This document shows positions 1 through 20,000 of a stretch of DNA of 20,000 nucleotides, piece after piece. The stretch comes from an uncultured virus (IMG/VR IMGVR_UViG_3300018475_001996). Lineage: Duplodnaviria > Heunggongvirae > Uroviricota > Caudoviricetes. Both the position numbers and the translations under genes were made by a program. The notes beneath the pieces were generated by a model. It was not told the DNA's origin, ran no database searches, and saw only the letters and a program-made list of their open reading frames with translations. Every line of letters starts with the position of its first letter. Position 1 is the stretch's first letter. The stretch spans positions 116,627 through 136,626 of IMG/VR virus record IMGVR_UViG_3300018475_001996. One strand, 5' to 3'.

Positions 1-45
1 CTTATAGAACAAGAAAAAATCGTAAAAGCTATTGATGCATTATAA
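1..45 (+). CDS. 3' end of a small protein running in from outside the window (…LIEQEKIVKAIDAL*)
   Basis: Frame 1 is open to TAA at 43-45. The C-terminus resembles those of 560..859 (LIENDINQEAIESLP) and 856..1146 (LLTQEETLETLNKLP). Confidence 0.5.
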   Translation, partial: LIEQEKIVKAIDAL

Positions 46-46
46 G

Positions 47-77
47 GGTTGACAATTACTTTATCGTTTACTATATT
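47..77 (+). promoter_or_regulatory. sigma70-type (early) promoter GGTTGACA-N17-TATATT
   Basis: TTGACA 49-54, 17-bp spacer, TATATT 72-77. SD-like AAAGGA precedes ATG 104. The same architecture occurs at four other sites in the window. Confidence 0.85.
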
Positions 78-103
78 AACGGTATAAACAAAAAGGAACA
101 ATC

Positions 104-547
104 ATGTTTAAAGTAATTTATACCAAGGCTGTTGATGGAAACGGACGTTATGCATATGTCGGTGGCGACAAGATGACATATGAATATGCGGACGTACCTG
201 ATGAAGAAACTTTCCAAAAGCTTAAGAACGAAATTGTCGAAGAACTTAAGAAGGAAGATTCCCCGCTTGTAAAGGCTTCGTTCTATAACGAAAAGGGAGT
301 TCCTTTTGAAATCAGTTTCGACGATATTAACGAAGAAGATGAATATTGTCTCATCGATACTGTCAATAACATGACGCTTAAGAAGCTTGAAGAACGTACC
401 GACGGTATGACCAAGGGACAATGGGAACTGTTTAACGGTTCTTATGACGATAACCTTAAGATTCCGGAAGATCTTGCCGAAGCGGATGAAAATTCTGACC
501 CGCTTTATGATTATCTTAAGAGCGTTGGACCGACACTTTTGAAGTAA
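104..547 (+). CDS. acidic hypothetical protein, 147 aa
   Basis: ORF directly downstream of a consensus promoter and SD. No recognisable motif. Confidence 0.8.
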   Translation: MFKVIYTKAVDGNGRYAYVGGDKMTYEYADVPDEETFQKLKNEIVEELKKEDSPLVKASFYNEKGVPFEISFDDINEEDEYCLIDTVNNMTLKKLEERTDGMTKGQWELFNGSYDDNLKIPEDLAEADENSDPLYDYLKSVGPTLLK

Positions 548-559
548 GGAGAAACTACC

Positions 560-859
560 ATGATTCATGTATATGACAACTGTAAACTATATACCAATGT
601 TATAAATCCAAAGCTGGAATATGTTACAGACAGTATCTGGCCGCCTTATAATCCCTATTTCTGGATAACTTTCAAGGAAAGCCCTAATGCACAATTTAAT
701 AGGGTAGACTTCCGAGATTTCACTGAGGAAATGAATAACAATTATATCGAAATCAATAACCAGCGATTCAAATATAAAGATATAAAAGAAAACCTGGAAT
801 ATATCCAAGCCCTAATCGAAAACGATATTAACCAGGAAGCTATCGAGTCCCTCCCATGA
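560..859 (+). CDS. small hypothetical protein, paralogue family A
   Basis: SD AAGGAG upstream. Shares MIxVYD, PPY, INxxxFKYKD and AL…LP with 856..1146. Confidence 0.8.
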   Translation: MIHVYDNCKLYTNVINPKLEYVTDSIWPPYNPYFWITFKESPNAQFNRVDFRDFTEEMNNNYIEINNQRFKYKDIKENLEYIQALIENDINQEAIESLP

Positions 860-1146
860 TTGAAGTCTACGATACAAATAATAAAAAATCAGAAGTAATA
901 GAAGTCATAAGGCTGGATAAACTGACTGACAAATGCGTTAAACCTCCCTATGTCTATTTTTCTCTAATGTATAAAGACTCTTCTAACCAGAAGGGCTTTA
1001 CTATATTCTCTATAGGCAGTTCTGAAAATTACCTGTCTATTAACGGAAGAAAATTCAAATATAAAGATATGATAGAAAAAGAGGGCCTCATAGACGCCCT
1101 CCTTACCCAAGAAGAAACCCTTGAAACACTAAATAAGCTACCCTAG
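856..1146 (+). CDS. small hypothetical protein, paralogue family A
   Basis: ATGA overlap with the previous gene and clear paralogy to 560..859. Confidence 0.8.
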   Translation: MIEVYDTNNKKSEVIEVIRLDKLTDKCVKPPYVYFSLMYKDSSNQKGFTIFSIGSSENYLSINGRKFKYKDMIEKEGLIDALLTQEETLETLNKLP

Positions 1147-3796: not shown

Positions 3797-4234
3797 TTAA
3801 TCTTTGGGTTGTGCGGCGAGCCGGAAATAATCTTCCCATTTCTTGACTATATGTTGTTTCTGTTCCTTGTTCAGGATTTGAAGATAGAATTTGGCTTCGC
3901 GGTCCGTGAGGTCGTATTCCTTCTTTACCGACTCGATTTCGACCGGATCGTATTCCTGGGTTCCTTTGAAGTAGTCGTATTTGAAGTAATGCTTCGTGTG
4001 CTTTACATAGCCGATGAGGATATTGTAATGCATATCGTCGGTCAGTTTCTGTGTGGCGAGCTGGTCCGCGACGGGAATCAGATAGTCGTAGGAACAGATG
4101 AACCTGTTAATCATGAACTGGCTGTAGCCATTCTGGAGATCTTCCGGGAGGTCTTTCCATTCCGGGTACTGTTTGGTACAGAGTGCGGTCAGGATTTCCC
4201 AGAGAGGATTACGCTTTTTCTGTTTGGTTTCCAT
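3797..4234 (-). CDS. gp62: clamp loader small subunit (T4 gp62-like)
   Basis: YSQFMINRF, HYNIL, and the C-terminal IESVKKEYDLTDREAKFYLQIL pattern typical of gp62. Lies downstream of gp45/gp44. Confidence 0.75.
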   Translation of the reverse strand: METKQKKRNPLWEILTALCTKQYPEWKDLPEDLQNGYSQFMINRFICSYDYLIPVADQLATQKLTDDMHYNILIGYVKHTKHYFKYDYFKGTQEYDPVEIESVKKEYDLTDREAKFYLQILNKEQKQHIVKKWEDYFRLAAQPKD

Positions 4235-5024
4235 TATCTACCTTCTTGGTCGGCATGGTCTTGATTCTGGACATATCGAACTTTGAGAGTCTCGAAATCG
4301 GCCAGTTACCGTTAACCGCCGAAGTCCACTTGTTGAAGAAATTGAGTCTTAGCTGTTCCCAGTTCTTCGGGAGTTCACCTTGGGATTCATGTTTGACCGA
4401 AACCGCCACGGTAGCGACCCTATAGCCCGCGGCGAGCGCCTGGAGACAGATGTCGGCATCGTAGAAGTGAAAATCCGGAAGTAATTCGTCGAATCTGAAA
4501 CCTTTTTCGAAGAACCACTTGGGGAAGAACATGCAGCATCCGTCGACGGTGGCCATGAACTTATGGTTACCCGGATAGTCGTTCATCGGGTATTCATAGT
4601 GTTCCATGACTGGATTTCCCTTATCGTCGAGGACCGGTTTCTTATTTTCGTCGAGTTTCGGTCGGATTCCGCCCTGGATGATGGAACCTGCGCCGTAGTT
4701 GGCTCTGCCTCCGGCGGACGGGACTCCGTGCCACCATGCACAGCCCTGGTCCAAGGCGATCGTGCCGATGACTCCCATGACCGCCGCGTTATATTCCTGG
4801 CAGACCTTATCTACTTTGAATTCGATAACGTCCAGAGGCGATCTCAGTTCCGTATCGTCGTGTCGGAAACAAACGTATTTTTCTTTGGAATTGAGAACGA
4901 ACTGTTCTATGGCGCGGTTATACTTCTTGGCCATAGAATCGTGAGGAATGTTTTCGATATACTTGATTGTGTCGGTATCGACTTGGTTTTCGGTTCTTTT
5001 ATTTACCGGGATTATCTGAAGCAT
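4209..5024 (-). CDS. GT-A fold glycosyltransferase (GT2-like, StrF/Glyco_tranf_2_5-type)
   Basis: KKYN, YVCFRHDD (DxD-like), VATVDG-type TVDGCCMFF, FRFDE, FHFYDADICLQ and VKHES motifs. Confidence 0.8.
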   Translation of the reverse strand: MLQIIPVNKRTENQVDTDTIKYIENIPHDSMAKKYNRAIEQFVLNSKEKYVCFRHDDTELRSPLDVIEFKVDKVCQEYNAAVMGVIGTIALDQGCAWWHGVPSAGGRANYGAGSIIQGGIRPKLDENKKPVLDDKGNPVMEHYEYPMNDYPGNHKFMATVDGCCMFFPKWFFEKGFRFDELLPDFHFYDADICLQALAAGYRVATVAVSVKHESQGELPKNWEQLRLNFFNKWTSAVNGNWPISRLSKFDMSRIKTMPTKKVDNGNQTEKA

Positions 5025-15699: not shown

Positions 15700-16221
15700 T
15701 TAAAAGTGCATTTTATGTATTTCCATATATTTCGTTATATACAGTCTTGCCATGCGCTTGATAAAATTCTGCATCTGCACACAGTTAATCCTGCTGTTAC
15801 CGCAATAGTCCTTGGGGTTTTCTTTTATATATTCAAGGAAATCATCTGCGCCACGATCCTTAATCTGATTCAGGAATACGAGCCTGCATGCCGTGGTATT
15901 CGGCGTGGAAAAGATCTTTACCCTGCTGTAACGTACTGGATTGAACAATGCATCGTATGTAATCTTGAACGCAGTATCTAAGTCATCGGCATAATCCTTT
16001 TTCCTTTTCTCTATATAAGAAGCCGGAGCAACACTGTCGCGCTGCTTCTTATCGTTGAATTCCTGAACAATGTCCGGGCGATGCCATTCGCACTTGCGGA
16101 TAATCTCGTTATAGTACTCATAAGCCGGTAACGTGTTGTAATGTTCCGGGTCTATTTCGAGTTCGCTGTACATGCGATCGCCAAGTTTAGACTGTATAAA
16201 AGATACTAATTCGTCGTTCAT
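15700..16221 (-). CDS. hypothetical protein, 173 aa
   Basis: ORF co-oriented with neighbours and preceded by TATAAATA. No motif recognised. Confidence 0.75.
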   Translation of the reverse strand: MNDELVSFIQSKLGDRMYSELEIDPEHYNTLPAYEYYNEIIRKCEWHRPDIVQEFNDKKQRDSVAPASYIEKRKKDYADDLDTAFKITYDALFNPVRYSRVKIFSTPNTTACRLVFLNQIKDRGADDFLEYIKENPKDYCGNSRINCVQMQNFIKRMARLYITKYMEIHKMHF

Positions 16222-16231
16222 AATGTTATTA

Positions 16232-16239
16232 TATTTATA
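16232..16239 (-). promoter_or_regulatory. T4-type late promoter TATAAATA
   Basis: Exact T4 late consensus, between a terminator and ATG 16221. The AT-rich context means a chance match is possible. Confidence 0.5.
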
Positions 16240-16243
16240 AAAT

Positions 16244-16267
16244 AAAAACCCTCGGTGTTCCCGAGGG
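16244..16267 (-). terminator. intrinsic terminator after the sigma gene
   Basis: Stem CCCTCGG/CCGAGGG followed by T5 on the minus strand. Confidence 0.8.
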
Positions 16268-16277
16268 CCGTTAAAAT

Positions 16278-17105
16278 CTACTCTAGCGGAAACTCGTCCC
16301 GCGGAATCTTCTTCTTCAATCGCCTCAACGCCTTGTTCTTTATCTGTCGCACTCTTTCCCTTGAATAACCCGTAAGATCGCCGACATCTCCCAATGTATA
16401 ATCCTTACCGTTAGTGCCGAAGAATAAATTCAGAATATCATTTTCTTTTGTCGTTGTATTGGTCAGTACATACTGCTTGAGTAACTTGTTACGGTTGGTA
16501 ACCAAATACTTCTGCTGTGCGTTGGACTTCTGGTCTGGTACAATATCATTCAGCGTATGATCTGTTTCCATGTTCATCCCGTGTTCACGCATCGTCACCG
16601 GTGTTTCCAATGAAATCGGTTCGAACGTATTCTGGATAAGTTTCATCGTATCGAGTTCCGCCTTGTTCTTTACCAAGTCTTCAAGCGGTAACCCTGTCTC
16701 ACGCATATTACGCTGGAGTTCGAAGTAACGGTACTGCTGGTTGGACGGGATATGAATGAGTCGGCTCTTGCCGATAATGAATGCCAGCATGCTTTGACGA
16801 ATCCACCATACCGCGTATGAAATGAACCTGATGTTACGCGAGGCATCGTATGTATTGATTGCATGGTACATGCCGGCCATGCCTTCGTTAACAAGATCTG
16901 CAAGACTGTAGTTTTTGCCGGTATATTTCTTAGCACATGAGACAACGAATAATAAATGACTGTTAGCTATCTTCTTGACAGCTGCTTGTCTGACGAGTTT
17001 ATCCTTTGTTGACTTGATAATCGAAAAACATGCCGCCTCTTCTTTATCTGTCATATGGCGGGTGTTTCGAATATCTCTCATGAACTGTTCAAATAGATAT
17101 TCCAT
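16278..17105 (-). CDS. RNA polymerase sigma70-family factor (RpoD/RpoS-like, regions 1.2-4)
   Basis: LLFVVSCAKKY, DLVNEG, RFISYAVWWIRQ, SLETPV and region 4 HTH TLGDVGDLTGYSRERVRQI. Confidence 0.92.
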   Translation of the reverse strand: MEYLFEQFMRDIRNTRHMTDKEEAACFSIIKSTKDKLVRQAAVKKIANSHLLFVVSCAKKYTGKNYSLADLVNEGMAGMYHAINTYDASRNIRFISYAVWWIRQSMLAFIIGKSRLIHIPSNQQYRYFELQRNMRETGLPLEDLVKNKAELDTMKLIQNTFEPISLETPVTMREHGMNMETDHTLNDIVPDQKSNAQQKYLVTNRNKLLKQYVLTNTTTKENDILNLFFGTNGKDYTLGDVGDLTGYSRERVRQIKNKALRRLKKKIPRDEFPLE

Positions 17106-17107
17106 AA

Positions 17108-17242
17108 TTATTTCTCCGGCTTTCGCTTCTGTCTTTTTACGTGAAGCTTATTACGGACAGGAAGAACACAGCTGGTTGTATGTGTCACAAACAGGTTAAA
17201 TATTGTTTTGCTATGCTCTTCTGTCCATAAACTTTTAATCAT
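17108..17242 (-). CDS. possible 44-aa basic leaderless ORF (MIKSLWTEEH…) upstream of the sigma gene
   Basis: ATG 7 nt after a promoter -10, and the ORF ends 2 nt before the sigma ATG. It could instead be a 5' UTR. Confidence 0.35.
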   Translation of the reverse strand: MIKSLWTEEHSKTIFNLFVTHTTSCVLPVRNKLHVKRQKRKPEK

Positions 17243-17249
17243 ATTTTTC

Positions 17250-17280
17250 AATATAGCATACGTTTTTTGTTTTGTAAACC
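17250..17280 (-). promoter_or_regulatory. promoter GGTTTACA-N17-TATATT driving the sigma gene
   Basis: -35 at 17273-17278 and -10 at 17250-17255. Confidence 0.75.
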
Positions 17281-17293
17281 CCTTTGGCCATAT

Positions 17294-17325
17294 AAAAAAC
17301 CCCATGTGACCGAAATCACATGGGG
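17294..17325 (-). terminator. intrinsic terminator
   Basis: 10-bp stem CCCCATGTGA/TCACATGGGG with a TTTCGG loop and T6 on the minus strand. Confidence 0.88.
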
Positions 17326-17384
17326 CCAAACCAACTACTCATCGTAGCAAAGGAGTCGTAACAATATGGCAAACAATCACGACC
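17294..17384 (-). ncRNA. putative ~90-nt small RNA
   Basis: Own promoter (17390-17420) and terminator (17294-17325) with no substantial ORF between them. Has a 5' hairpin GUCGUGA/UUACGAC and an anti-SD segment ACUCCUUU. Confidence 0.55.
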
Positions 17385-17389
17385 TTTAT

Positions 17390-17420
17390 AATATAGCAAA
17401 TAATTTTTCTTTCGTAAACC
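17390..17420 (-). promoter_or_regulatory. promoter GGTTTACG-N17-TATATT
   Basis: -35 at 17413-17418 and -10 at 17390-17395, with TTTGC just upstream of the -10. Confidence 0.75.
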
Positions 17421-17437
17421 CCCCGGAGGCAAAAAAA

Positions 17438-18286
17438 TTATACTGCTACAGGGAACTTAATAGCCGGATGACTCTGGTAATCTTTCAATTCGAAATCGGT
17501 ATACTTCCAGTCCCAGATAGTCCAGTTAGGATCGTCCGTGTTAAGGATCTCTACTGACGGAGGTGTCATAGGCTCGCGAGTCAACTGTTCCCTCACACCA
17601 TCAAGCTGGTTGACATAGATGTGGGAATCCGCGAAGAAACCGATAACCTTGCCAGGCTTCATCTTTACCTGCTTGCAGATCAACGTGAGCAACATGGCAT
17701 AAGATGCCAGGTCATATGGAACTCCGAGAGGAAAATCAGAACTACGCTGATTCCAGAGCAAATCAACGTAACCGTCATTAGACAGTAACTGGAAACAGTA
17801 GTGACAAGGAGGCAATGCCATTTCACCTAACTGCTGTGGGTTCCAGGCGGAGACCAACATACGTCTATCGGTAGGATTGGTCTGTAACGTGTGAATCACA
17901 TTCTTCAACTGGTTGATGCCTGAATCGTTGAAGTTGTTCCACTGGTAACCGTAGATTTTACCCAGGTCGTTTTCAGCGGCCATCTTCTTTTTGGTTTCTT
18001 CATCATTACCGTAAGGAACCTTAGCCGGGTTGGCCCACTCGTCCCAGATATGGCAGTTACGTTCCTTGAGGAATTCCTTATTGGCGATGCCCTTGATGAA
18101 CATCTCCAGTTCGGCGCATATATTCTTCAGTCCCATTTTCTTCGTGGTTAACAAAGGGAACTTTCCTGTAGACATATCGAATTCAATCATTGAACCCGAG
18201 ATTGACAAAGTGTCCACACCTGTACGGTTATGTTTAATCTTTCCTTCCTTAAGAATTCTATCAAGTATGTCAAGATACTGTTTCAT
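17438..18286 (-). CDS. thyA: thymidylate synthase-family enzyme with Asn-to-Asp at the base-specificity site (possible dCMP methylase/hydroxymethylase)
   Basis: FPLLTTKK, IWDEWA, IYGYQW, RRMLVSAWNP, catalytic ALPPCH, QRSSD and HIY. It has GVPYDLASY instead of the canonical GxPFNIASY. Confidence 0.9.
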   Translation of the reverse strand: MKQYLDILDRILKEGKIKHNRTGVDTLSISGSMIEFDMSTGKFPLLTTKKMGLKNICAELEMFIKGIANKEFLKERNCHIWDEWANPAKVPYGNDEETKKKMAAENDLGKIYGYQWNNFNDSGINQLKNVIHTLQTNPTDRRMLVSAWNPQQLGEMALPPCHYCFQLLSNDGYVDLLWNQRSSDFPLGVPYDLASYAMLLTLICKQVKMKPGKVIGFFADSHIYVNQLDGVREQLTREPMTPPSVEILNTDDPNWTIWDWKYTDFELKDYQSHPAIKFPVAV

Positions 18287-18287
18287 G

Positions 18288-18803
18288 TTATTTCTCCATA
18301 TGCTTGATTAGTGCGTCAATGAATCTCTGCGCGATAACGTCATGTGATGCGTAGTGATCGCCATCATTGACCTTAATCATAAGTTTGTTTAATTTCGATT
18401 CCTGGAACTTCTTGATGAAGTCCTCTTGTTCTTCCTGTCTACGGCTGAAGTCATGGGACTGACCGTCATCCTGCATGATATTGAAATCCGTAGTATAGAG
18501 AAGGATGAAGATCGTGTTATACAGTTCGTCCCTGTATGAATCTTCCATGATGCGTACGTAGTTAGGACTGTAATCCCTGTAACGTGGCGCATAGATGAGT
18601 TCGTCCCAATGCCCGCGGTTAAATACCACGTTGTTCTGGTAAGCCAGCGTCATGAAGTAATCCAGGTACTGAGACTTGGACCAGATAAGAGGATCCTTAT
18701 CCTTAGGAGGCTTGTCCAGATGAATCTGCTTATAGCCTTTCAATACGTTATCAATAAAGGTATTCTTTCCAATGCGGTCGATTCCAGTAACTACGAAATT
18801 CAT
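18288..18803 (-). CDS. deoxynucleoside monophosphate kinase (thymidylate kinase-like)
   Basis: N-terminal P-loop GIDRIGKNT and FNRGHWDELIY (DR-motif equivalent). Coupled to thyA. Confidence 0.75.
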   Translation of the reverse strand: MNFVVTGIDRIGKNTFIDNVLKGYKQIHLDKPPKDKDPLIWSKSQYLDYFMTLAYQNNVVFNRGHWDELIYAPRYRDYSPNYVRIMEDSYRDELYNTIFILLYTTDFNIMQDDGQSHDFSRRQEEQEDFIKKFQESKLNKLMIKVNDGDHYASHDVIAQRFIDALIKHMEK

Positions 18804-19843
18804 TAAGACTGCTCCTTGTAACTGTTATACAATTCAGTAAAGCTTGCATACAGTTCATCTTTGTTCAACGGTGTATCATGTTGTTCAAGGTATGTCTTAA
18901 ACAATGACATGATATTATTAAGTGTCTCGCCCGACAGTTCAACTTCCTCTGTGGTGTCGTCCGCGGGCAGGATATTGATATTGACTGGATATGCCGGTTT
19001 CAATTTCTCAAGCTTATCCACGAGCGAATAGATCTTCTTCGTCTGGTCAGAGAGTTCAAAAGGTATCTCCAGGTCAACAACATTACCCGCGATGACAGAC
19101 AGGTCTACGTCCGGGAAGGTATGCTTGGTGAACTTAATGGACTGCGTATTCTCGTGTAACACGTCTTCGTTGGTGTCCAGGTCAAGTATGTGGTAACCCT
19201 TGGTGTCTCCGCGGTCTATTCTAGTAAGCTGGTATGGCGAACCGAGATATGTAATGGACTTGTTCTTCTCGTACTTCCTGGTATAGCCGTTATGGTAATG
19301 ACCCGAATAGACATGATCTATATGGTCGAGGAGTGTAGAAGCCATGAGACCCGAATCCGAAAGACGACCGCCCATGTTGAAACCGATAATATCAGCGTGG
19401 CAGAAGCAATACTCGTGATGCCCGGGTACTATCTCCTCGAACTTGGAGTAGTCAGTAATCCAGGGAAGCATAAGTATGTTATGTCCGTCCAGTGTAATTT
19501 CCGTGGGCTTTTCATACACGGTAACGTGAGGCATCAGGTCAAGAACCTTCAGGCTGTTTACCTCTGTGGTAGTAGTCATGTACATGTCGTGGTTACCTAC
19601 TATAACATGTATGTCAAAATCCTTCAGCGTATTCTTGAACAGATCGATGACCACGTTATCTGTCTGAACGTTAACTGCCTGGCGAGTGTCGAAGACGTCG
19701 CCAAGTATGAATAGCTTGGTAATACCTGCAGCCTTGAGCTCAGGAACCAGTTGGTCAGTAAAAAACTTTAATTGTGAACGCTGGAAGATAGAATCTGATT
19801 TTTTAATTCCAGCATGCAAGTCTGCTATCAATGCTATTTTCAT
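18803..19843 (-). CDS. gp47: recombination nuclease subunit, Mre11/SbcD-like (T4 gp47-like)
   Basis: ADLH, GDVFD, GNHD, SGHYH and GSPY metallophosphoesterase motifs. Confidence 0.9.
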   Translation of the reverse strand: MKIALIADLHAGIKKSDSIFQRSQLKFFTDQLVPELKAAGITKLFILGDVFDTRQAVNVQTDNVVIDLFKNTLKDFDIHVIVGNHDMYMTTTTEVNSLKVLDLMPHVTVYEKPTEITLDGHNILMLPWITDYSKFEEIVPGHHEYCFCHADIIGFNMGGRLSDSGLMASTLLDHIDHVYSGHYHNGYTRKYEKNKSITYLGSPYQLTRIDRGDTKGYHILDLDTNEDVLHENTQSIKFTKHTFPDVDLSVIAGNVVDLEIPFELSDQTKKIYSLVDKLEKLKPAYPVNINILPADDTTEEVELSGETLNNIMSLFKTYLEQHDTPLNKDELYASFTELYNSYKEQS

Positions 19844-19914
19844 ATACGATGTAAATGTAGTAAAATATTTGCGATGGTCTTATATAGTATATGTTAAACT
19901 TCTGAATATTTACA

Positions 19915-19935
19915 ATCTACTAACGATCTACTAAC
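19915..19935. repeat. tandem ATCTACTAAC x2 (11-bp period) upstream of gp47
   Basis: Copies at 19915-19924 and 19926-19935. Resembles the ATCTATTAAG array core, in the same orientation. Confidence 0.5.
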
Positions 19936-20000
19936 AATGTGAATAATAATGGCTCCCAATTTATTACGGGAAATATATATGCCGAAGAAAGTAGCATATA

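Follow-up and report, generated by a model that had tools for sequence, protein, structure and literature searches.

A thymidylate synthase (TS) homologue encoded near one end of a 20,000-nucleotide stretch of an uncultured virus (Caudoviricetes; IMG/VR record IMGVR_UViG_3300018475_001996, positions 116,627 to 136,626; the whole stretch is referred to here as the window) carries an Asp at the position where ThyA enzymes have an Asn. Judging from its active-site residues and from the genes that accompany it, we think it probable that the enzyme methylates deoxycytidine monophosphate (dCMP) and that the phage DNA carries 5-methylcytosine (5mC). The product is most likely 5-methyl-dCMP together with dihydrofolate, and not 5-hydroxymethyl- or 5-hydroxy-dCMP. 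The gene and the codon in question are located as follows.

17438-18286, minus strand: thymidylate-synthase homologue of 282 amino acids, predicted deoxycytidylate C5-methyltransferase (5-methyl-dCMP synthase), from PF00303 and the active-site pattern.
17713-17711, minus strand: GAC codon for the Asp that aligns with E. coli ThyA Asn177 and L. casei TS Asn229, from the sequence and alignments.

The 282-residue open reading frame (ORF) matches PF00303 (Thymidylat_synt) along the entire profile (positions 1-266 of 266; E 8.1e-91, 304 bits against a cut-off of 24.3) and is 42% identical to E. coli ThyA. On the minus strand it reads QRSSDFPLGVPYDLASY, and the Asp encoded by GAC aligns with the Asn177 column of E. 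coli ThyA. The initial annotation, made from the sequence alone, had proposed just this – a near-canonical ThyA homologue with an Asp in the Asn177 column, with the His of the PCH motif retained, and with T4 gp42 having Asp at the same position – and the alignments agree on each point, the retained residue being His147. The catalytic Cys146 and also Glu58, Arg166, Arg126/127, Tyr94, His207 and Tyr209 are all present. Second among PDB sequence matches, above the wild-type entries of L. casei, comes 1njc/1njd from that species, with ...LGVPFDIASY... at this point; the search itself gives sequence only, and we take this entry to be the engineered N229D mutant.

Conservation of the Asp was followed in the best 120 of 8,000 candidates scored in a word-indexed protein search, which are 65-96% identical to the query and are referred to below as the listed homologues. 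The canonical ThyA mark, Asn177, which selects uracil, is absent from the query and from all 120, each of which has Asp177 and Asp169; fixation of Asp177 over this range of identity argues for selection on a changed specificity. The TS gene is 100% identical in three further IMG/VR contigs and 99.6% identical in a fourth. At other IMG/VR loci residue 177 is Asp where the TS is 63-91% identical and Asn where it is 41-49% identical, with one locus at 36% again having Asp. Among the Logan assembled contigs of public sequencing runs, those of four runs cover the codon, and none of 40 listed differences (18 more exist) falls at 17711-17713; such contigs carry no per-base depth and do not bear on base modification. 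A private mutation or a sequencing error at the Asp codon is ruled out by the conservation in the listed homologues, the identical genes and the run contigs; the two checks that had been proposed for this residue, of its conservation and of read support for its codon, thus both came out in its favour.

A change from Asn to Asp at this position shifts TS preference from deoxyuridine monophosphate (dUMP) to dCMP, giving 5-methyl-dCMP, and Asp177 associates with cytosine-modified viral contigs, as described by Yang et al. 2021 (PMC8670742). The hydroxymethylase signature derived from the ternary complex of T4 gp42 by Park et al. 2019 (PMC6400193) consists of Asp/Glu at Cys-3 (Leu143 in ThyA), together with Ser/Thr at the residue two before the catalytic Tyr (Tyr-2), a missing C-terminal tail, and Val in place of Trp83. 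Lee et al. 2026 (PMC13326640) restate the first of these marks as L143 for methyl and D/E143 for hydroxymethyl transfer, and give Asn169 as the mark of 5-hydroxy-dCMP synthases. The enzyme described here has the pattern D177, L143, D169, H147, W80 and W83: it has Leu and not Asp/Glu at Cys-3 (MALPPC), Lys-Ile and no Ser/Thr before Tyr94 (G-K-I-Y), and a complete ThyA tail at its C-terminus (...HPAIKFPVAV), and the D169N mark of 5-hydroxy-dCMP synthases is absent. By the rules given in PMC13326640 and PMC6400193 it has the sequence marks of a dCMP methyltransferase, with Asp177, a retained Asp169 and a non-acidic residue 143. Ten of the 12 residues within 6 Å of C5, as listed in PMC13326640, equal those of E. 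coli ThyA, the exceptions being C168S and N177D.

The listed homologues agree with these assignments. A ThyA-like tail and the IWxxW motif occur in 120/120, and Leu at Cys-3 with His147 was found by pattern in 119/120, the protein that missed the pattern (P0065) reading ...ALPPCH.... In the same alignment T4 gp42 has D143 and RB69 gp48 has E143 and N169; both agree with the papers, so that the alignment behaves as it should. A fast alignment misplaced columns 93 and 143 of T4 gp42, and other alignments and the structural equivalences of PMC6400193 were used instead. According to a preprint (10.1101/2024.12.05.627091), the TS of Xanthomonas phage Xp12 and five of seven metagenomic Asp-type TS enzymes made 5-methyldeoxycytidine (5mdC) in vivo. 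The initial annotation had allowed either 5-methyl- or 5-hydroxymethyl-dCMP as the product; the published signatures favour the methyl half of that proposal, and the marks of the hydroxymethyl half are absent.

The final 20 kb of a viral contig of 136,626 bases (CheckV completeness 32%) make up the window, and the start of a contig of 411,059 bases, rated 98% complete, matches the window at 100% identity along 8,560 bases. Terminal repeats are present in two relatives (415,750 and 424,163 bases), both with a completeness rating of 100%, and these two and the 411,059-base contig are the (near-)complete genomes of the phage group considered below. The Asp enzyme is the sole PF00303 match in each of them and ThyX is found in none, so that the search for a second, Asn-type ThyA or a ThyX suggested by the initial annotation returned nothing. 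PF00145 likewise has no match in any of the three, which rules out a C5 DNA methyltransferase of this family as a source of 5mC; TET/JBP dioxygenases gave no match in the three, but nor did they in the control genomes, so that no weight attaches to this negative. Each genome carries one dihydrofolate reductase (DHFR), one dCMP-deaminase-family gene and one dUTPase_2-family protein. The gene set is thus that of an Xp12-type methylase, with DHFR and deaminase and no other TS or ThyX. The window's own contig holds the Asp TS together with the following.

Genome 99,176-99,691: DHFR (E 5e-49).
Genome 80,760-81,548: gp56-like nucleoside triphosphate (NTP) pyrophosphatase of the dUTPase_2 family, a candidate dCTP/dUTP pyrophosphatase (Pfam E 1e-7; phrog_173 E 6e-12).
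Genome 83,074-83,565: dCMP-deaminase-family enzyme.

The pyrophosphatase has a local match to T4 gp56 (46% over 50 amino acids, E 2e-7) and supplies a candidate for the dCTPase whose presence had also been suggested for checking. DHFR and deaminase genes are adjacent in the 415-kb relative. Deaminases linked to Asp-type TS can prefer 5-methyl-dCTP, and the preprint that describes this (10.1101/2024.12.05.627091) proposes that they supply dTTP, with no second TS needed. The complement here would amount to the Xp12 set of functions and fits the scheme of that preprint, though it is dispersed. A phage whose sole TS-family member released tetrahydrofolate (THF) would have no evident need of a DHFR, and retention of DHFR therefore favours an enzyme that produces dihydrofolate.

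The same gene complement bears on a different reading, in which the enzyme has kept the role of a thymidylate synthase, either as its only one or beside dCMP methylation. Enough dUMP activity would be left to supply deoxythymidine monophosphate (dTMP), and the DNA would contain little or no 5mC. The enzyme's active site is that of E. coli ThyA save for N177D and C168S, and as the sole TS-family gene of three (near-)complete genomes it belongs to a phage whose dTMP needs a source; DHFR fits such an enzyme equally well, and two of the seven Asp-type enzymes in the preprint gave no 5mdC (10.1101/2024.12.05.627091). We nonetheless regard this as unlikely, since Asp is fixed in all 120 listed homologues, the Asn-to-Asp change is described as switching preference to dCMP (PMC8670742), and the deaminase-family gene offers the route to thymidine that is proposed for Xp12-type phages (10.1101/2024.12.05.627091).

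The avoidance of restriction sites offers a further comparison, of a weak and circumstantial kind. Counts of palindromic sites in the 136-kb contig, including the 12 C-containing 4-base palindromes, were set against Markov expectations and against the enzyme results for Xp12 (5mC) DNA and for the 5-hydroxymethylcytosine (5hmC) DNA of T4gt given in Tables S3 and S1, respectively, of Flodman et al. 2020 (PMC7653180). The entries for Xp12 DNA below are those of Table S3.

GATC: 181 observed against 412 expected, z -13.9; on Xp12 DNA MboI and DpnII cut completely and Sau3AI does not.
GTAC: z -4.7; RsaI cuts Xp12 DNA partly.
AGTACT: 2 against 25 expected; ScaI cuts Xp12 DNA partly.
GATATC: 0 against 47 expected; Xp12 is without the site.
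TCGA: z +1.1; TaqI cuts Xp12 DNA completely.
GGCC, CCGG, AGCT and GCGC: z between +0.3 and -3.2; HaeIII, MspI, AluI and HhaI do not cut Xp12 DNA.
CTAG, CGCG, ACGT, TGCA and CATG: z between -3.3 and +5.0; BfaI, BstUI, HpyCH4IV, HpyCH4V and NlaIII do not cut Xp12 DNA.

The two most avoided of the 12 sites, GATC and GTAC, are among the three that 5mC fails to protect, which has a chance of 3/66. DNA with 5hmC (T4gt) resists MboI, DpnII and Sau3AI according to Table S1 of PMC7653180, and strong avoidance of GATC is therefore more readily reconciled with 5mC, or with unmodified DNA, than with 5hmC. AATATT and AATT are strongly avoided in the contig along with GATATC, which suggests pressure from particular host restriction systems.

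These counts are relevant to whether the enzyme is instead a dCMP hydroxymethylase like T4 gp42, with 5hmC in the DNA that could be glycosylated by the product of a nearby ORF. Asp177 is common to T4 gp42, the replication genes are T4-like, and an ORF of 271 amino acids at window 4209-5024 (minus strand), which adjoins the clamp-loader gene in the same replication block, belongs by its Pfam match to a glycosyltransferase family. That match is weak and generic (Glyco_tranf_2_5, E 1e-9) and the ORF has no PHROG match; all three published marks of the hydroxymethylase (the acidic residue at Cys-3, Ser/Thr at Tyr-2 and loss of the tail) are absent, DHFR is present in 3/3 genomes although an enzyme that yields THF leaves no evident need for it, and GATC is strongly avoided although 5hmC DNA resists the three GATC enzymes (PMC7653180). 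A hydroxymethylase is accordingly improbable.

The origin of the Asp enzyme was examined with an alignment of 149 representatives of clusters at 50% identity, seven close homologues and four references, in which residue 177 is Asp in 26, Asn in 131, Thr in two and a gap in one. A FastTree phylogeny was built from 157 rows, after the fragments P0186, P0220 and P0221 had been dropped, and with column 177 left out. Around the query is an all-Asp clade of nine rows (support 96), itself nested in one of 11 rows, among them one of Asn type (support 95). The result relied on here is that rows with Asp do not form a single clade: well-supported branches force at least six changes, and parsimony gives 12. 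The Xp12 TS and T4 gp42 are distant long branches, and the deep forks are weak, so that the deep order is unreliable. The tree supports a separate origin from Xp12 and gp42, by repurposing of a ThyA inside the canonical radiation; the suggestion that this is a repurposed ThyA rather than a gp42-type enzyme is in keeping with this, as the query sits among canonical ThyA-like sequences and far from both T4 gp42 and the Xp12 TS.

Two other features of the TS family were noted. Many of the homologues (P0054, P0064 and P0068-P0120, of 428-444 amino acids; P0144, of 550; and P0146, of 467) carry an insert, some 146-270 residues long, in the region of query residue 120; the window's own TS gene has none. 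The insert of P0144 and P0146 holds an I-HmuI-like NUMOD domain of homing endonucleases, and that of P0083 has no Pfam match; it may be that gene callers have read through introns or mobile endonuclease genes here, as with T4 td. Relative to the 415-kb phage (L015/L016), the TS is 91% identical, and the kinase and SbcD encoded beside it are 58% and 61% identical, which points to much stronger constraint on the TS or to recent exchange of its gene.

The TS gene is the third of three tightly packed minus-strand genes at window 17438-19843, in the order SbcD-kinase-TS, and the rest of the unit is as follows.

18288-18803, minus strand: P-loop kinase of YorR/thymidylate-kinase fold, 171 amino acids, candidate 5-methyl-dCMP (deoxynucleoside monophosphate, dNMP) kinase, from an AlphaFold2 model and Foldseek.
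18803-19843, minus strand: SbcD/gp47-like nuclease subunit, first gene of the unit, given as context and outside the nucleotide pathway (phrog_100, E 1.1e-65).
17298-17327, minus strand: terminator-like hairpin, 13 pairs followed by a T run, likely the end of the unit, from a consensus scan.

The kinase start overlaps the SbcD stop and the TS start lies one base after the kinase stop; the hairpin (17327-17298), a candidate terminator by consensus scan only, is about 110 bases past the TS stop. The order of the three genes is kept in the relatives L015-L017, in which the TS is 77-91% identical. A Logan contig from an RNA library spans the TS and kinase genes, which is no proof of transcription. 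An Rfam scan of the window found no family at gathering score. Directly downstream of the unit is a gene for a sigma-70 family factor (regions 2 and 4; phrog_351, E 2e-42) at window 16278-17105 on the minus strand.

Sequence searches with the 171-residue protein give faint results: a sub-threshold AAA_28 match in Pfam, PHROGs "thymidylate kinase" at E 6e-4, and in the PDB a weak match to YorR (E 0.017 with the single sequence, 0.028 with a profile), so that a fold search was needed for its identity. The family is small, with 23 homologues found, and has the conserved motifs G-x-D-R-x-G-K-[N/D]-T, N-R-G-H-x-D-E and D-D-G-x-S-x-D. The D-R that precedes GK-N/D-T presumably resembles the P-loop of eukaryotic-type thymidylate kinases (TMPK). 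An AlphaFold2 model made with 17 sequences (predicted local distance difference test score 90.7) has as its top Foldseek matches YorR of the B. subtilis phage SPbeta (2axp/3kb2; E 4e-7, template-modelling (TM) score 0.65-0.70), followed by thymidylate kinases (E 2e-4 and weaker, TM 0.5-0.6), the NadR kinase domain and deoxynucleoside kinases (dNK). The model thus has the P-loop nucleoside/nucleotide-monophosphate kinase fold represented by YorR, TMPK and dNK. A profile of the family matches RB69 gp45 over about 100 columns (hhalign probability 71%, E 3.6e-5; hmmsearch E 1.7e-6), and finds no homologue in the whole Xp12 genome.

RB69 gp45, DLP3 gp78 (best PDB match YorR) and RL38J1 gp214 are predicted "nucleotide kinases" encoded 1-3 genes from cytosine-directed TS homologues (PMC13326640), and kinases of the RB69 gp45/DLP3 gp78 type appear there in a table of predicted functions. 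The pairing of kinase and TS is therefore both conserved and precedented. From the model and the profile match, the 171-residue protein has a YorR/thymidylate-kinase fold, is a distant relative of RB69 gp45 and would act on a dNMP; of the coupled dNMP kinase proposed at the outset, the kinase fold, its adjacency and its precedents stand, and a dNMP substrate is suggested at the level of fold. No canonical Tmk scores above threshold in the complete genomes, and no T4 gp1-like kinase matches at E 0.01 in the three (near-)complete genomes, in a search run without a positive control. A 5-methyl-dCMP kinase activity was reportedly described for Xp12 in the 1980s.

The kinase also brings to mind a 5-hydroxy-dCMP synthase like RB69 gp48 or DLP3 gp80, the first step to O-glycosylated cytosine, as a YorR/TMPK-like kinase accompanies a cytosine-directed TS homologue in RB69 and DLP3 too (PMC13326640) and RB69 gp45 is a distant relative of the present kinase, but this can be set aside as highly improbable, with Asp at residue 169 in the query and in 120/120 listed homologues, Leu and not Glu at 143, only 18% identity to RB69 gp48, and no arabinose or sugar-nucleotide gene cluster beside the TS in the Pfam/PHROG annotations.

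The pathway that would follow from dCMP methylation can be set out in six steps, in which the residues, the gene complement and the fold are observed, and the substrates, the products and the state of the virion DNA are inferred. The gp56-like NTP pyrophosphatase would convert dCTP and dUTP to monophosphates, both feeding the methylase and keeping dCTP out of DNA. The Asp-type TS would then methylate dCMP, the change of Asn177 to Asp making it bind dCMP instead of dUMP; as the hydride-transfer machinery for methylene-tetrahydrofolate is all retained, the products would be 5-methyl-dCMP and dihydrofolate, the latter being recycled by the phage DHFR. The adjacent YorR/TMPK-fold kinase would make the diphosphate of 5-methyl-dCMP, with a host NDP kinase completing the triphosphate. 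The dCMP-deaminase-family enzyme would convert some of the 5-methyl-dC nucleotides to thymidine nucleotides, which would explain how the phage lives without a dUMP-specific TS. Finally, the B-family polymerase would build DNA in which 5mC largely or wholly replaces cytosine, and many host restriction enzymes would be blunted.

Several observations weigh against dCMP methylation and 5mC-containing DNA, or against parts of this pathway. Although its methylase activity is proven, the TS of Xp12 combines a short tail with Asn at Cys-3 and Pro at 147, and the rule that Leu143 means methyl transfer is thus a correlation and not a law. Of the seven Asp-type enzymes tested in the preprint, two did not yield 5mdC (10.1101/2024.12.05.627091). 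The argument from site avoidance is post hoc, covers 12 sites and fits unmodified DNA equally, and carries little weight; TCGA, moreover, is cleavable in 5mC DNA and yet is not avoided (z +1.1). The deaminase gene is 50-70 kb from the TS gene and shares no cassette with it. The window kinase has no PF02223 match, its G003 orthologue reaches 14.7 bits where the cut-off is 27, and its P-loop (residues 7-15, GIDRIGKNT) is GK-N/D-T in 17/17 aligned members, as opposed to the Walker A motif GxxxxGK[ST]. A second kinase-like ORF lies at genome 58,147-58,689 (phrog_2107 "thymidylate kinase", E 7e-12; AAA_28). The glycosyltransferase-like ORF at window 4209-5024 may leave room for further modification of the DNA.

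A broader synthesis, which we offer tentatively and would sooner doubt than assert, is that the YorR-like protein with its GK-N/D-T P-loop is a dedicated 5-methyl-dCMP kinase, and that together with RB69 gp45 and DLP3 gp78 it defines a phage "modified-dCMP kinase" family replacing T4 gp1. The clade (roughly 410-425 kb, ruminant gut) would then be among the largest all-5-methylcytosine genomes, with an Asn-to-Asp switch in a canonical ThyA that arose independently of Xp12.

The window is part of a T4-like animal-gut phage with a genome of about 411 kb. The 136-kb contig has T4-type replication and recombination genes (gp32, UvsX, UvsY, a B-family polymerase, RNase H, clamp loader and a DnaB-like helicase), and reads well with translation table 11, being 91% coding by crude ORF calling. 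The window stretch recurs in numerous metagenomes of animal faeces and bovine gut, drawn from several studies. A megablast of window 16000-20000 against a phage collection gave no match, and a tblastn search matched 4,177 records, all below 60% identity and the best at 44% at the protein level, pointing to no close cultured phage among them. At genome 111,866-117,772, including window 1-1146, at least 14 small genes (93-128 amino acids) follow one another in tandem on the plus strand; these are divergent paralogues of each other (BLASTP E down to 1e-7), and none has a Pfam match. Host-like auxiliary genes at genome 36,215-38,421 and elsewhere in the contig, outside the window, include those for NAD salvage (nicotinate phosphoribosyltransferase, NAPRTase, and an isochorismatase/nicotinamidase) and a PARG-like macrodomain hydrolase. 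RtcB, a T4-type RNA ligase, the head domain of a CCA-adding/poly(A) polymerase, two copies of Cpn10, ClpP, an IF-1-like protein and a flotillin/LemA pair are also encoded, and the set is typical jumbo-phage cargo (cf. PMC11662467).

If dCMP methylation is borne out, 5-methylcytosine takes the place of cytosine in a widespread group of animal-gut phages of very large size. This would bear on the behaviour of their DNA in library preparation and methylation-aware sequencing, on the host restriction systems that they escape or – in the case of Type IV enzymes – trigger, and on the annotation of their "thymidylate synthase" genes. Since it repeats in nature the classic N177D/N229D experiment on an otherwise canonical ThyA, the enzyme would also be a clean subject for studies of specificity, and a modified-dCMP kinase is a plausible role for the kinase encoded next to it.

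The closest relative by predicted function is the 5-methyl-dCMP pathway of Xp12 (MT664984), in which 5mC fully replaces cytosine. The Xp12 TS shares Asp177, Asp169, the catalytic Cys, Glu58 and Arg166 with the query, both phages encode a DHFR and a dCMP-deaminase-family protein with no other TS, the predicted product is the same, and thymidine would be supplied by the same route of deamination (10.1101/2024.12.05.627091). The two nevertheless differ in several respects. The query is only 26% identical to the Xp12 TS and is a near-canonical ThyA, whereas Xp12 has Asn143, Pro147, Phe83 and a short C-terminus. In Xp12, a 64-kb siphovirus, the TS, deaminase and DHFR genes lie side by side as a cassette; here the genome is of myovirus type and 411 kb, and the genes are scattered along about 50 kb of it. 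No homologue of the kinase came up in the Xp12 genome.

By sequence, the nearest counterparts are canonical ThyA and the engineered dCMP methylases E. coli ThyA N177D and L. casei TS N229D, which have the same single change in an otherwise canonical active site, with His147, Leu143 and the tail kept. The natural enzyme differs from these in being fixed in a phage clade, in its additional C168S, and in an overall identity of about 42-50%. T4 gp42 is of the TS superfamily, has Asp at the specificity position and, as here, a T4-like setting among replication genes, but is about 23% identical, with Asp145 at Cys-3, Ser94 and no tail where the query has Leu, Lys/Ile and a full tail. RB69 gp45 and DLP3 gp78 have the same fold as the kinase (YorR 2axp, 3kb2) and the same placement near a dCMP-directed TS homologue in a T4-like phage; the relationship to RB69 gp45 is distant, and the P-loop is GK-N/D-T here as opposed to GK-T-T.

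The kind of system is known, in that Asp-type phage TS enzymes making 5-methyl-dCMP have been mined from IMG/VR and assayed (PMC8670742; 10.1101/2024.12.05.627091), and these reports and PMC13326640 already contain the principle, the rule for the residue and assays in vivo, so that no new kind of biology is involved. What is particular here is the setting in a clade of T4-like gut phages of 410-425 kb, the near-canonical ThyA background in which the Asp occurs, and the conserved YorR-like kinase with its unusual P-loop.

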